A stretch of 64,000 bases of DNA, taken from IMG/VR virus record IMGVR_UViG_3300033151_000166, positions 11,677 through 75,676 of that record; one strand, written 5' to 3'. Positions 4,244-17,679 of this stretch are shown one piece after another. Under the pieces are notes generated by a model that was given only the letters and a program-made list of their open reading frames with translations, had not been told where the DNA came from and did not search any database. Made by a program: the position numbers and the translations under genes. Every line of letters begins with the position of its first letter. Positions within the stretch are counted from its first letter, which is position 1. Source of the stretch: a virus.

Positions 4244-4570
4244 ATGAGTACAGTCTTTGCTAGAACAAACAACACAGAGGTATCAGTGGTATGTATCACT
4301 ATACAAGAACATAATGACTGCATGGACTATATAGAGTCTGTGCTAAAGGCTAATAGCTATGATGTAGCTGCTATCAATAATGACCTATCTGAGACAGTGT
4401 TAATCACGTTTATGTCTCATGGTAGAGAAGACCTTAACATACACGTAGAAAGAGACTTATTGACTGGAGCCTTTATATATGGCCTTGTTGTAATAGAGTG
4501 TCACTATTGGACTAGACTAGATATTAGCTTAGAAGCCTTGCTTATAGAGCTTAAACACCGATACACATAA
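4244..4570 (+). CDS. Hypothetical early protein
   Basis: GGAGGT RBS. Confidence 0.8.
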   Translation: MSTVFARTNNTEVSVVCITIQEHNDCMDYIESVLKANSYDVAAINNDLSETVLITFMSHGREDLNIHVERDLLTGAFIYGLVVIECHYWTRLDISLEALLIELKHRYT

Positions 4571-4602
4571 GTATCGACACTGGATGTTTCCTGAAAGAAC
4601 CT

Positions 4603-5160
4603 ATGAAAGAAGATATGATGAATGAGATTAAAAGAGCGAGTTGGTGGTTTGAGGCTGAGATGGTATCAGATGTGGCTGATAAGGCAATCAGTATAGTGTC
4701 AACAACAGATGAAGTACGATTTGTCTTTGCTGAGGTTATGGATAGAGACACGGCTATGAGTAATCTAATTGACTTCCTACCTGATCATGAATGGTATATA
4801 CCAAGACACACAGCTAATCATACACTAACTGTCTATCGTGAAGCACCAGATGCATTCATGTTCAAAGACCTTGTATGTGAGACTGATGAGTATAAAGGCC
4901 AAGAGCGTAAGATCAGAGTAAGAGGCTTTGGTGACATATTCTTATGGAAGAACCTAGACAGTGACATAGGTGAACATAGATGGTTTCCCTCTGGTATAAC
5001 TCTTCTACCTAGAGAGCACTCATATGTATACTCTGATGGTGCAGTGTTCTACTTTGACTTTATGAACAAACTAGGTAAGTTCCTAGATTGTGATGCCGAT
5101 CAGTTACGTTTCATAGTAGCTAGTCAGAACCTGATGAATTCAGTAAGCTATAGGAGCTAG
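4603..5160 (+). CDS. Hypothetical early protein
   Basis: 185-aa ORF in the co-oriented chain. Confidence 0.8.
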   Translation: MKEDMMNEIKRASWWFEAEMVSDVADKAISIVSTTDEVRFVFAEVMDRDTAMSNLIDFLPDHEWYIPRHTANHTLTVYREAPDAFMFKDLVCETDEYKGQERKIRVRGFGDIFLWKNLDSDIGEHRWFPSGITLLPREHSYVYSDGAVFYFDFMNKLGKFLDCDADQLRFIVASQNLMNSVSYRS

Positions 5161-5162
5161 AG

Positions 5163-5405
5163 ATGAAATTTCACGAAAAACAGATAATGAGAACAATGAT
5201 ATTCCTTGAGGCCTGTGAAGGTGAGCAAGGCTGTGTGTCTATAGAAGACTTAACTATCAAGTACGACTACTGGATAAATGGTTATGCTCAAGAGACACTT
5301 AAACTGTCTATACTAGACAAGGATGATGATGTTCTATGGATGACAGACGGTCCAACACGAAGATCACTCAGAGATTTACACGATATATTAGGAGAGTCAG
5401 TATGA
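5163..5405 (+). CDS. Hypothetical early protein
   Basis: AGGAG RBS. Confidence 0.75.
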   Translation: MKFHEKQIMRTMIFLEACEGEQGCVSIEDLTIKYDYWINGYAQETLKLSILDKDDDVLWMTDGPTRRSLRDLHDILGESV

Positions 5406-5584
5406 AATATGTAGTATACACGGAAGAGACAATCCGTAAAGGGTTTGTAGTCGAGGCTGACAGTCGTGAGGCTGCCATAGTTGAGTTTGAGCGTCAAGAG
5501 AAAGATGGTACAGCATATGAGAGTGAAGATGCTGACTACTTTCAAGAGTCACCGACTGTAATCACTGATGCTGAGCTAGTTTAA
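5402..5584 (+). CDS. Small acidic early protein (MKYVVYTEE...VEADSREAA...)
   Basis: AGGAG RBS, ATGA overlap; start refined to 5402. Confidence 0.75.
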   Translation: MKYVVYTEETIRKGFVVEADSREAAIVEFERQEKDGTAYESEDADYFQESPTVITDAELV

Positions 5585-5635
5585 GCTTATTAACCACACT
5601 GGATGTTGCCTGTAATAAATATAAAGGAGTCTTAA

Positions 5636-5986
5636 ATGACTTTCATAATCACCAAAGAACTATTAACCGCCGCTTCTGCTAACCACCTATCTAGCTTCAA
5701 TAGAGCCATTGCAGACCACACTACAGCTGATAACATGGGTTGTGACCTAGAACACGCGCCATATCAGGTATCTGATGTTATTCCTCTATTAGCAGTCCGT
5801 TTCGCTGATAATAGTATGTATGAGGATGCTTGTGCTGAATTACCAGCTGGATCTTACCTAATCAACGATATTGATGAGGATATGTTGATGACACCTGAGA
5901 GAATCAGCGATTTTGAGCAGACATTGAGCAATTATGCTCACGATCTGTACCTTCCAGGCAGTGATCTACTAGTTAATGTAGTATAG
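5636..5986 (+). CDS. Hypothetical acidic early protein
   Basis: AAAGGAG RBS. Confidence 0.8.
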   Translation: MTFIITKELLTAASANHLSSFNRAIADHTTADNMGCDLEHAPYQVSDVIPLLAVRFADNSMYEDACAELPAGSYLINDIDEDMLMTPERISDFEQTLSNYAHDLYLPGSDLLVNVV

Positions 5987-6031
5987 TGAGCAGTTATAGC
6001 ACCTTCCGAGGTGCTATATAGTGCTTATTTT
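5987..6031 (+). terminator. Intrinsic terminator / long hairpin ending the first early operon
   Basis: TATAGCACCT-tccg-AGGTGCTATA with outer TGAGCA/TGCTTA and a following TTTT. Confidence 0.7.
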
Positions 6032-6248
6032 GAGCCAATAGCGTACTATCAACGCAAAAACAAGGCAATTATACACAAAATACACTAAAATCGAGGCCCA
6101 TATCATGGCTTATATAGCTAGTGATATAACTTAGTAAGTAGAATACTCGTGCGATTATATTCTATAACTACACCTCACGTCCGGCACATAAGCGGGGGTC
6201 TAACATCATTTTAGCTATACCATCCGAATAGCAAGAAAGACCCATCCC

Positions 6249-6407
6249 GCTTGTGATATAATATGTATCAAGAGCAAGGAAGCACTGAGACATATCGATT
6301 CTCAGAGTAACTTTAATCTCACTTGTGATATAATATATGTATGAGTGACTGAGAACCAGCGAGATTTGAAAGAGTCAAAGCAATCTTCAGTCCACTTGCG
6401 ATATAAT
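6249..6407 (+). promoter_or_regulatory. Three tandem extended -10 promoters (6249-6262, 6321-6334, 6394-6407)
   Basis: (A/G)CTTG(T/C)GATATAAT three times at 72-73-bp spacing upstream of 6451. Confidence 0.85.
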
Positions 6408-6450
6408 ATATATCAAGAGTGAGAGCTCAAATCAAATCAAGGAGTTCTAA

Positions 6451-6852
6451 ATGAACTTTTCAATCCCAACTGTCGAAGACATCGTAACCAAGTACCAAGC
6501 TGTAGAGCTGGACAACCCTGAGCAAGCAAAAGCTGAACTTATGAAGTTGAACAAAGACGAACTTGTCGAACGTTTAATCCAAGCAACAAGCCACCGTAGT
6601 GGAACTGTCCAAGAACTTGCTAAAGCAATCCTTCAAGATGAGGAGCTGATCGCTGCGAACTATGAGACCATTGCTGATGCCATTAAAGTAATGATGCCTA
6701 CTGCCAAGACGAGCTCAAAGAGCATTGCTTCATATGTAAGCAAGAAACGTGAAGAGTGGGAACTACCTCCAAGAATTCGTATCGCCACTCAACGTCCAAA
6801 GAAGGTACCTGAACCTGAAGCTGAAGCTGAAGCACCTGAAGCTGAAGCGTAA
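6451..6852 (+). CDS. Putative HTH nucleic-acid-binding protein with an acidic Ala/Glu tail (paralogue of 16052)
   Basis: YETIADAIK..AKTSSKSIASY aligns with YAELANYLK..VETTANSIAWY of 16052; AAGGAG RBS. Confidence 0.6.
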   Translation: MNFSIPTVEDIVTKYQAVELDNPEQAKAELMKLNKDELVERLIQATSHRSGTVQELAKAILQDEELIAANYETIADAIKVMMPTAKTSSKSIASYVSKKREEWELPPRIRIATQRPKKVPEPEAEAEAPEAEA

Positions 6853-6965
6853 TGGCATTGGCATGGCTATTAGGCCTTGCCGTGTTCCTCTACTCTGTAT
6901 ACGTAGCTGTGAGGTACGTGATCCCAGCTATCATTCTTCTAACCTACGAATTGTTTAATTCATAG
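6852..6965 (+). CDS. 37-aa membrane peptide (MALAWLLGLAVFLYSVYVAVRYVIPAIILLTYELFNS)
   Basis: Hand translation, TAATG coupling, strongly hydrophobic. Confidence 0.6.
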   Translation: MALAWLLGLAVFLYSVYVAVRYVIPAIILLTYELFNS

Positions 6966-7668
6966 GTTCACCCTCCCCACCATTTCATATATCATATTTA
7001 TTCCGCGAGCCACAACATTTGGGAACTATTTTTGTAAAATAATGCAACCCATTTGACTCAATCATTTATCGTATTTCATCCAATCGTGACCGATTTTTGA
7101 TGCCTGTAACAGCGAGTCGTGAAAAACGTCAAGGGGTAAGGGACATTTGCAAAATTTTAATTTGGTTTTTCACGTCTAAATATTATGTAAAAGGTACAAA
7201 TAGACTCTATTTTCATAGACGTCCAACAGCTGTGATTACCATTGCCATTACAGTGCGATCACTCACAGCGCTTAACAGTGGACTTTTTTTACACATATAT
7301 ATATATATAATAAAGTTATTAAAAATAAATATAATATATAATCTTCATGCATATTGACACCGGCTGCATGTTTTGCTCTTTGTTATTTTTATGCGCTGCG
7401 TTTTTTTTACAGTCGTACGCTACAAGGCGTGTTAACATACAATTCGATACTATATTACAAAAATATATTATGAGTCACAGTTCAGCTAATTCCACTGCGT
7501 GCGAGCTCAATGGCAATGGCATTTAACCTTTAACATCTAGGCATTTAACATTTAACATTTAGGCATCAGGCATTTAACATTAGGCAATGGCATTTAACAT
7601 TAGGCAATGGCAATGGCATCAGGCAAATCAGCATAAAGGTAAATGATCTATAAGGTATAATTGTTCTA
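6966..7668. other. ~700-bp non-coding AT/homopolymer-rich region (candidate origin, terminal-repeat boundary or packaging region)
   Basis: No credible ORF; A/T tracts and a (TA)n run that are uncommon in the coding parts; ends in a short-unit repeat array. Confidence 0.55.
7508..7639 (+). repeat. Array of ~19 tandem 6-8-nt units (CAATGG, CATTTAA, CATTAGG, CATCAGG)
   Basis: Read directly from the sequence. Confidence 0.9.
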
Positions 7669-14635: not shown

Positions 14636-14650
14636 GCACTCCACGAGAAT

Positions 14651-14711
14651 ACTCGTGGTATAATATAATTTATAGAGGATATTTGCTGATGTAAATGTCC
14701 TCTTAGATTAT
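14651..14711 (+). promoter_or_regulatory. Variant promoter ACTCGTGGTATAAT followed by a long 5' hairpin
   Basis: AGAGGATATTTGC-tgat-GTAAATGTCCTCT stem just after the promoter. Confidence 0.7.
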
Positions 14712-14790
14712 ATCACAGACTAAGAACTGTGCGGTATGGCTCACGGATTGAGCTTAAAAGTTAACATTTAATCGAAATGGAGGTTGATAA

Positions 14791-15970: not shown

Positions 15971-15984
15971 ACTTGTGATATAAT
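15971..15984 (+). promoter_or_regulatory. Extended -10 promoter
   Basis: ACTTGTGATATAAT exact; overlapped by inverted repeat TACAAGTAG/CTACTTGTG. Confidence 0.85.
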
Positions 15985-16051: not shown

Positions 16052-16552
16052 ATGACAAAGACACAATTAATCGCAAGAGCAGCAGGTCTGGGTTTACCAG
16101 TAGAAGACAAAGATACAAAAGAGGTACTTTTAGAGAAAGTATCAAACTTTTTCATCGAAAACGATGACAAAGAGGCGCTAGTATCTTTCCTTGAAGAGAA
16201 CGGTTTCACTCTTGATGAAGAGGGTAACGTTGTTAAGAAGTCAAAGCGTGGTAGTCTTGGTGAGAACCCAAATACTAAAGCTTTCCATACGATCAAAGTA
16301 CTTCAAGATGAGACTCTTGCTGAACTATCTTATGCAGAGCTTGCTAACTACCTTAAAGAGACTGAGGGTGTTGAAACTACAGCTAACTCTATCGCTTGGT
16401 ATGCTAACTGGCTTAAGACTAAAGGCAAAGAGTGTGTTGCTCGTGCTAAAAAGTCTAAGAAAGCTGACAAAGCAGCAGCTGAAGCAGCAGAAGCAGCAGA
16501 AGCAGAAGACGCTCCTGAAGTCGAAGAGACTGAAGAAGCAGCAGAGGTTTAA
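16052..16552 (+). CDS. Putative nucleic-acid-binding protein (small helical N-terminal domain, HTH, Lys patch, acidic tail)
   Basis: MTKTQLIARAAGLGL..TKEVLL; paralogue of 6451; CAGGAG RBS. Confidence 0.6.
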   Translation: MTKTQLIARAAGLGLPVEDKDTKEVLLEKVSNFFIENDDKEALVSFLEENGFTLDEEGNVVKKSKRGSLGENPNTKAFHTIKVLQDETLAELSYAELANYLKETEGVETTANSIAWYANWLKTKGKECVARAKKSKKADKAAAEAAEAAEAEDAPEVEETEEAAEV

Positions 16553-16561
16553 TCCTCTCTT

Positions 16562-17054
16562 CACGGCTTCGGCCGTGCATATGGTCAATGACCACCAAAT
16601 TCGCTGGTGCTTCCCAGACTAAACGAAGCTATGTTAATTTATGATAAAGTTATTGAGGGTCTAGCCATCCTCAGTACGTTTGTTCAATGCAGTCCTAGTG
16701 GTTTATCCACATTTTCTCCTAGGGCTTCTAGAGTAAACTATAACATCACTGTGTGATTTTTGATTTGAGTTCTCAGAACATAGGCCCTCATCCTCCTATG
16801 TTCTCTAGAGCTCGTCATCTTAGGTCTCGTACACCTTAAGACAGTTCTACCTGCTATGGGGTAACAACATAGACGAGTGTTCTGATCCCGATTAATACGA
16901 TTAAGAAAGGCAAACAGGTCGTGCCTTCACACTCTCGGGTCACTAAAAGTCTCATACCATCTCTAGGTGACCCGGTATTATCCAATCAACCTTCTTTCAA
17001 TACTTCCCTGACATAACGCCTTTAGTTAGGGAAGATCTCATATCAAGCAAATCT
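16562..17054 (+). ncRNA. Candidate structured ncRNA: array of packed hairpins with anti-SD/anti-start-codon loops
   Basis: No ORF; more than 10 adjacent stems whose G-U pairs work on the + strand; C/U-rich loops with CAT..CCT. Confidence 0.65.
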
Positions 17055-17060
17055 ATTCAT

Positions 17061-17074
17061 ACTTGTGTTATAAT
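17061..17074 (+). promoter_or_regulatory. Extended -10 promoter
   Basis: ACTTGTGTTATAAT. Confidence 0.85.
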
Positions 17075-17103
17075 AATTTAAACTAAAACTCAAAGGCTAG
17101 ATA

Positions 17104-17679
17104 ATGAATATTACTGATACAGTGGAACGTCAATGGAATTGGCAAAAGACAATGAACTCGGATTTTGATACTATGTACTTGGCAGCGATCGAAGAAGTTG
17201 GTGAGCTCGTAGCAAGCTTTGGATATGCAGACTGGAAAAAGTCAGAGAGAGATACTCAGAACATTCTAGTTGAGTCAGCCGACTTATTTATCTTTGTTAT
17301 CAACTGTGCATACTATGCTAAAGAACCTATTAAAGGTCAACTCAATCCTCATATGACACCTATCGGTGACGATCGCAAATTTGCTCAGACACTCATTAGA
17401 GCACTGTCAGAGAACGATATGGACTATCTAATCAACATTCTATTTACTGAGTACCCAATGGCATATGACTATGTAATGGCTAAGCAAGCACTTAATGCTC
17501 TACGTCAAGATCATGGCTATAAGACTGGTGACTACATTAAAAACTGGGGTACAGATACTAAACCATACGAAGACAATAGAGCTTTATCAGCACTACTTGG
17601 TCGTGGTTTAAACTACAATGGTATGTACTTGGAACTAAACACGCAGTATACTGCAATGATGACTACTAGACTAGGATAA
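17104..17679 (+). CDS. dut: Dimeric all-alpha dUTPase (Campylobacter type; dCTPase activity possible)
   Basis: EEVGEL..YADWKK, VESADLFIF, KQALNALRQDHGYKTGDYIKNW..EDN. Confidence 0.88.
   Translation: MNITDTVERQWNWQKTMNSDFDTMYLAAIEEVGELVASFGYADWKKSERDTQNILVESADLFIFVINCAYYAKEPIKGQLNPHMTPIGDDRKFAQTLIRALSENDMDYLINILFTEYPMAYDYVMAKQALNALRQDHGYKTGDYIKNWGTDTKPYEDNRALSALLGRGLNYNGMYLELNTQYTAMMTTRLG

Follow-up and report, generated by a model that had tools for sequence, protein, structure and literature searches.

To our knowledge, only a small number of non-coding RNAs have been described from phages. C(UUCG)G hairpins occur in intercistronic regions of phage T4 and, like the RNase III-site regions of T7, are single processing or stabilising stem-loops on the transcribed strand, directly after a gene, without coding capacity and followed by a new promoter. 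Rho-dependent terminators, such as lambda tR1, lie in untranslated RNA after a stop codon where C exceeds G, with no intrinsic terminator and with a promoter downstream. Rho loading (rut) sites are largely unstructured, C-rich and G-poor stretches of ~80 nt, tR1 itself consisting of rut segments around a hairpin, and Rho-terminated transcripts get trimmed back to stable hairpins. The C4 antisense RNAs of phages P1 and P7 and the CI RNA of P4 are single processed RNAs; through their hairpin loops they base-pair with ribosome-binding regions, at defined, repeated targets in the same phage. Among bacterial regulators, Staphylococcus aureus RNAIII and RsaE and Helicobacter pylori RepG carry stable hairpins with G-poor, C/U-rich loops and a motif complementary to the Shine-Dalgarno (SD) sequence; the motif CUCCU, CCUCC or ACCUCC is the sequence of the 16S rRNA 3′ tail. 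Lastly, S. aureus icaR provides a bacterial 3′ UTR with an anti-SD motif (PMC3868564).

The locus described here belongs to an uncultured marine or vent phage and was analysed within a window of 64 kb, the whole stretch of DNA studied, out of a 75.7-kb IMG/VR virus record. Genes occupy the + strand from ~2.5 to 32.5 kb, and the structural genes are on the - strand. Between the stop codon of a gene for a 166-aa protein (p166; 16052..16552, + strand) and the start of a dUTPase_2 or NTP pyrophosphohydrolase-like gene (17104..17679, + strand), its conserved downstream neighbour, is a gap of 551 nt (16553-17103); no longer stretch of the + strand gene block is free of ORFs. This spacer is non-coding, structured and biased to the + strand, has kept its synteny with a sequence that is not conserved, and contains no U-tract terminator. 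Its transcription, and a role in stabilising mRNA or terminating transcription, are inferences, and the explanation we favour, tentatively and with slightly less than even confidence, is that it forms a structured 3′ UTR of the p166 mRNA and serves as its termination zone. The spacer is not an assembly artefact, because the same sequence, with zero differences where covered, is present in sediment and marine metagenome contigs from three other studies; some of these metagenome DNA contigs carry the whole spacer and others parts of it.

The original prediction was of some 500 nt without an ORF, and this was borne out. The longest ORF in the spacer encodes 49 aa from a GTG start without an SD, each frame contains 10-17 stops, and the codon-usage signal per codon is -0.33 to -0.41 in the spacer frames compared with +0.37 ± 0.12 in real genes, no residual signal being found in any frame of either strand. 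A protein-coding gene or recent pseudogene was rejected on the lack of an open frame, of codon signal and of tblastx similarity to the genes inserted at this position in a relative. ARAGORN identified no tRNA or tmRNA in the window. A search of the whole window against the Rfam 15 families returned no covariance-model match at the gathering threshold, and relaxing the search to E<=10 for 16300-17300 gave six chance-level matches of 11-18 bits against thresholds of 38-100. The hairpins are non-repetitive, as had been proposed, there being no direct-repeat family inside the spacer beyond one chance-level 18-nt pair. A CATCCTC repeat and the 18-nt repeat (D2) were set aside as being at chance level by estimate, whilst an apparent excess of CTAG was discounted, this word being frequent in the genome at large.

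Transcription across the spacer would most likely come from upstream. A phage promoter motif, CTTGTGWTATAAT, was found in 11 copies, 11/11 of them on the + strand (0.59 expected), at 6250-6407 (three in tandem), 7670, 9273, 11870, 13104, 15972, 17062, 22616 and 26902. Its consensus, CTTGTG(A/T)TATAAT, is of the extended -10 type and no copy has an obvious -35 element. The copy CTTGTGATATAAT (15972..15984, + strand) lies ahead of the p166 gene and the copy CTTGTGTTATAAT (17062..17074, + strand), at the right edge of the spacer, serves the next gene, such that the two bracket a unit of p166 plus spacer. There is no copy inside the spacer, and none on the - strand within the 30-kb + strand block. 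Any + strand transcript across the spacer probably starts at the 15972 promoter, and the motif and terminator scans agree with the prediction that it lies upstream with no U-tract terminator in between. Within the spacer itself no intrinsic terminator, that is a hairpin then a U-tract, was found, the sole match being a weak one in which the hairpin at 16651-16676 is followed by CGTTTGTTCA.

The p166 gene has 48 homologues at 55-100% identity and matched no Pfam family. Its structure model (pLDDT 82) has two helical domains, both small, and an acidic Ala/Glu tail that is disordered, and returned weak, local winged-helix-like fold matches only. An RNA-chaperone-like fold was considered and was not seen in the model. 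Across the related loci the p166 proteins share 60-78% identity, the ligases 34-57% and the primases 31-61%, and by this measure p166 is more conserved than its neighbours.

The spacer contains about ten stable hairpins on the + strand. At the end of the p166 gene a small hairpin, AGAGG-uuUAAu-CCUCU (16540..16560), has the stop codon as part of its loop, and is followed by a CACGGC-UUCG-GCCGUG tetraloop hairpin (16562..16577, -8.8 kcal/mol) with no U-tract after it. The hairpin at 16651..16676, with CAUCCUC at the loop and 3′ arm, forms 10 pairs on the + strand and 5 on the - strand (-10.3 against -4.4 kcal/mol). Next comes a branched 20-pair domain (16678..16738) around AGUCCUAG/CUAGGGCU, with an unpaired UUCUCCU and an energy of -14.2 on the + strand and -7.7 on the - strand. 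In the local fold a 21-pair extended hairpin covers 16762..16819, within which is a perfect 10-bp core stem, AGAACAUAGG/CCUAUGUUCU (16775-16804), whose loop CCCUCAUCCU has a probability of being unpaired of 1.0. A strand-neutral hairpin domain (16824..16874; -9.0 on the + strand, -11.2 on the -) and a GAGUGU/ACACUC stem around two small hairpins (16875..16934, -11.9 kcal/mol) lead to an 8-bp stem in the local fold, CGGGUCAC/GUGACCCG (16935..16975, stem 16936-16974), with a 23-nt C/U-rich loop. The last is the CUUCCCUGAC/GUUAGGGAAG hairpin (17003..17034), whose 10-bp stem includes one G-U pair on the + strand (-13.6 kcal/mol). Eight hairpins had been named from the sequence, and 7/8 were recovered at their places in the local minimum-energy fold; the GTATT/AATAC pairing at 16975-17003 was not in that fold.

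Folding the whole 551 nt gave a z-score of -4.54 on the + strand and -1.35 on the - strand. The raw energies of this fold are almost equal on both strands, and the gap in z arises mostly because shuffles of the - strand fold better. When pairs were limited to <=60 nt the z-scores were -4.8 on the + strand and -3.2 on the -. On the transcribed strand, 123 windows of 500 nt without overlap average -0.97 (sd 1.36) across the genome, and 16501-17000 ranks 5th amongst them. This ranking is based on 500-nt local folding in place of a 200-nt z-scan, since that scan, run with 15 shuffles, proved too noisy and the spacer did not stand out in it. The predicted better folding on the + strand is real though modest (-133.7 against -126.2 kcal/mol on the -), and arises wholly in the hairpins of 16651-16819 (~15 kcal/mol), the right half being neutral. 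The structure and the C/U-rich loops are therefore genuine, and are uncommon in this genome without being unique to the spacer. Separately, the most structured stretch sampled was the spacer before the ATP-dependent DNA ligase gene (14636-14790; 181 nt, z -6.5), with a long 23-pair hairpin and a CCACGAG/CUCGUGG hairpin running into TGGTATAAT.

Seven related loci were compared (L005/L006, L007, L008 (= L004), L009, L010 and L019), leaving out the closest p166 homologues (77-89% identity, ENA contigs). All seven keep the gene order ligase-p166-[spacer]-dUTPase-like-primase. The spacers of the relatives are 66, 122, 200, 209 or 223 nt long, or 2077 nt with three extra genes, and the array itself is not conserved among them. 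Searches of the phage collection with the spacer and both neighbouring proteins (megablast, blastn, tblastn) recovered no match to any of them, the full records of three relatives contained chance matches of 14-24 nt only, and blastn and tblastx against the relatives' loci found nothing but the shared promoter region. Unrelated spacers at a kept synteny imply that the 500-nt array is specific to this lineage and sits at a plastic junction. This junction appears to be an insertion hot spot, because L008 carries its three extra genes there (4517-6593); the product of one of them, 358 aa long, has a hydrophobic N-terminus and CPEPPEC-like repeats in tandem. The near-complete relative L019 (JALWRR010000076.1, 71.7 kb) is filed under an Asgard archaeon (Promethearchaeati) MAG, which could be a binning artefact or a hint of the host.

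The relatives' spacers are also structured, with z-scores of -8.55 in L005, -3.40 in L008, -2.83 in L009 and -1.68 in L019, the two shortest (L007 and L010) containing little beyond a canonical hairpin and T-run terminator. Canonical terminators are also found in L005 and L019; the spacer studied here and that of L009, in both of which C exceeds G, have none. The small hairpin that encloses the stop codon recurs, its arms differing in sequence, in six of seven loci (the window, L005, L006, L008, L009 and L010), the arms being AGAGG/CCUCU in the window, AGAAGU/ACUUCU in L008 and CUGA/UCAG in L010. Moreover, L005 and L006 differ by three substitutions, two of which make a compensatory change from C-G to U-A in the first 10-bp hairpin, whilst the third yields a G-U pair valid on the + strand only. 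These substitution patterns are evidence for selection on a + strand RNA beside the p166 stop codon.

As a 3′ UTR and termination zone the spacer would work as follows. RNA polymerase from the 15972 promoter would pass the p166 stop codon, whereupon the stop-codon hairpin, the UUCG hairpin and the next stem-loops would block 3′ exonucleases and so stabilise the mRNA of the conserved p166 gene; the stems may also offer double-strand processing sites. The ribosome-free RNA, in which C exceeds G, would favour a factor-dependent stop before the 17062 promoter restarts transcription, so that the spacer would insulate p166 from the promoter that follows, and its length may reflect a fast-evolving junction. 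Most of the 500 nt is probably without sequence-specific constraint, because the sequence is lineage-specific and the length variable. Several observations nonetheless count against this reading. The stem-loops directly after the gene, the C(UUCG)G hairpin, the use of the transcribed strand, the lack of coding capacity and the new promoter afterwards are all as in T4 and T7; however, those are single hairpins, whereas here ~ten extend over a far longer 500 nt, far above what 3′-end protection needs. Likewise the spacer resembles Rho-dependent terminators in being untranslated after a stop, in its excess of C over G (C/G 1.35, the longest such run of the + block), in lacking an intrinsic terminator and in its downstream promoter, but it is highly structured, being amongst the most structured parts of the genome, whereas Rho loading sites normally lack structure, and patches of ~200 nt with C>G are also common inside genes of this phage. 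A passive role would also leave unexplained an enrichment of CUCCU/CCUCC/ACCUCC in five lineages and a 17-nt match to an early 5′ UTR, both of which are described below.

These last two points lead to the second explanation, namely a regulatory RNA, either 3′-UTR-borne or processed, whose C/U-rich anti-SD-like loops would pair with host or phage ribosome-binding regions. We regard this as possible but unlikely. The proposal that the loops are C/U-rich and accessible was upheld: the unpaired bases of the spacer are 64% pyrimidine, 29% C and 5% G, compared with 41 ± 6% pyrimidine and 16% G in control windows, and the loops have predicted probabilities of being unpaired of 0.68-1.0. Anti-SD 5-mers are denser in this spacer than elsewhere in the + block (6 against 0.75 per 500 nt). 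Against its own composition, however, the excess in this spacer alone is weak (6 against 2.5, P 0.08), and the motif is present in its weaker forms, CCUCCU once, CUCCU and UCCUC, the full ACCUCC being absent.

Comparison across lineages gives a stronger signal. In the p166 spacers of all seven loci, pooled to 1524 nt and with sites in five lineages, CCTCC/CTCCT occurs 10 times against 33 in 68438 nt outside (P 6e-9), and ACCTCC/CCTCCT 6 times against 5 outside. Against composition-preserving shuffles CTCCT was found 9 times (1.86 expected), CCTCC 6 times (1.22) and CACCT 6 times (1.43), whilst the remaining 26 pyrimidine-only 5-mers present were not enriched. The enrichment of CTCCT/CCTCC is significant as a pre-stated hypothesis; as an open, unsupervised 5-mer screen it would fail correction for 1024 words, which counts against the regulatory reading. 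Most of the sites are predicted to be unpaired in the relatives, L009 presenting CCUCC as the loop on a 5-bp stem and L019 carrying AACCTCCTAA twice. The motif-bearing hairpins are not homologous between lineages, and two short spacers are without the motif. The original prediction is supported in part: C/U-rich anti-SD-like motifs, mostly predicted to be accessible, recur in the spacers of four other lineages, but the idea of one loop for one target is not supported.

That idea was that each loop reads as an anti-start codon followed by an anti-SD, and thereby guides the RNA to a different start region. Under lax rules the spacer contains 15 overlapping matches to such an arrangement against 6.7 ± 3.2 in controls (P 0.019), falling to 5 against 3.1 at an SD-start spacing of 4-9 nt (P 0.2), so that at realistic spacing the geometry is not beyond chance. 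Several of the examples quoted have an SD-AUG gap of 0-3 nt, compared with 6 nt in two phage genes read directly (p166 and gene 6451), and such loops could therefore not cover both elements of a start region; the 79 predicted genes of the phage favour AAGGAG-type SDs. We then scored the best contiguous pairing of the spacer to each of 79 start regions (-40 to +20), contiguous pairs being used since duplexfold with the whole spacer gave meaningless long-range pairings. The mean score was 20.09, compared with 20.10 ± 0.30 for shuffled spacers and 19.96 for sites inside genes, so that the spacer is no more complementary to the start regions of its own phage than shuffled sequence is, and the same was true of three relatives and their own start regions (P 0.14, 0.10 and 0.92). 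A multiplexed guide array with one hairpin per target is thus backed by no test that was run and is not supported.

One individual match does stand out. A 17-nt segment at 16759..16775 (+ strand) is fully complementary, with 16 Watson-Crick pairs and 1 G-U pair, to 6420..6436 (+ strand), a candidate target site in the 5′ UTR of gene 6451-6852, just 5′ of its SD. The score of this match was reached by 14/1750 shuffled spacers (P 0.008), and the duplex is predicted at -24.4 kcal/mol with a cofolding gain of 7.5 kcal/mol. Gene 6451-6852 is preceded by the three tandem promoter motifs. Set against this, the segment is mostly paired, lying in a stem and not a loop (probability unpaired 0.3), and no such pairing was found between the homologous early 5′ UTRs of three relatives and their own spacers. 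We therefore treat the 17-nt match as a lead and not as a result. In the predicted fold of this 5′ UTR (6414-6475) the SD (AGGAGUUC) pairs with codons 2-4 and the AUG is in a loop. The stretch after the gene (6853-7096) is a second ORF-poor region in which C exceeds G, with an unpaired CCCUCCCC and ordinary structure (z -0.85).

Comparison with described regulators is similarly mixed. The spacer is like the icaR-type 3′ UTR in its length and its C/U-rich anti-SD-like motif, but the defining pairing with the gene's own SD was not found: the motif showed no preferential pairing with p166's own start region in the window (-12.2 kcal/mol against -13.4 ± 1.9 for shuffles) or in five relatives (P 0.29-0.99). 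With RNAIII, RsaE and RepG it shares stable hairpins, G-poor C/U-rich loops and an SD-complementary motif; it differs from them in showing no target enrichment among the phage genes and has no sequence or Rfam relation to them. With C4 and CI it would share phage RNA hairpin loops that pair with ribosome-binding regions, but the repeated targets that define those RNAs were not found here. A bolder form of the regulatory reading, which we rate as rather unlikely, is that the p166 3′ region is a new kind of phage regulatory RNA, a fast-evolving hairpin scaffold whose sole conserved feature would be at least one accessible (C)ACCUCCU/CUCCU that pairs with the SDs of host or phage early mRNAs (e.g. 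gene 6451) and retunes translation during infection; the window would then hold the largest known version, with ~ten hairpins.

It is also conceivable, though in our view improbable, that the spacer acts at the level of DNA, as an origin or protein-binding region, or is the leftover of cargo lost at the insertion hot spot; its inverted repeats would then work as DNA or be functionless. The variable size of the junction (66 nt in one relative, 2 kb and three extra genes in another) would fit such an account, as would a spacer sequence unique to this lineage, its position immediately before the dUTPase-like, primase and helicase genes, and the exact 10-nt repeat in L019, its copies 40 nt apart. 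Moreover, the stems are mostly Watson-Crick, the right half folds nearly equally on either strand, and the composition of the + strand resembles the antisense of coding DNA. Decayed cargo is, however, opposed by the lack of residual codon signal and of translated similarity to the relative's cargo genes. A replication origin was rejected, as no iterons and no AT-rich unwinding element or segment were found in the spacer, whose GC (41-43%) is slightly above that of the genome (~40%), and direct repeats are lacking too. The excess of structure and the + strand preference argue instead for selection on RNA, as do the compensatory changes in the relatives.

Very unlikely, lastly, is a functional - strand, either with small ORFs behind AGGAGG SDs or as a decoy whose GGA/AGGAUG loops titrate a CsrA-type protein: motifs there do read as strong SDs (TTAGGAGGT, AAGGAGGTG), L019 has an SD with an ATG at 6 nt and a 54-codon frame, and AGGAUG is in two hairpin loops, but the frames (5-54 codons) are unrelated and not conserved, no frame in the window combines a proper SD with proper spacing, codon signal and - strand promoter motifs are lacking, the hairpins of 16651-16738 lose about half their energy on that strand, and there is no Rfam CsrB/Rsm match. 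By reading, that strand has ~11 GGA in 490 nt, near the number given by composition, and only some of them are in loops. The SD-ATG motifs have no plausible - strand ORF behind them, as the original prediction required.

If the spacer is a mere structured mRNA tail, its import is small, being an unusually long 3′-end structure from uncultured phages of marine or vent origin. It also marks a plastic junction beside replication genes. If, on the other hand, the anti-SD-like motif is functional, it would be a conserved mimic of the 16S tail in a phage transcript, and would offer a simple route by which a phage could disturb ribosome binding. Two concrete and cheaply testable leads towards such a role are the motif enrichment across lineages and the 17-nt early 5′ UTR match.
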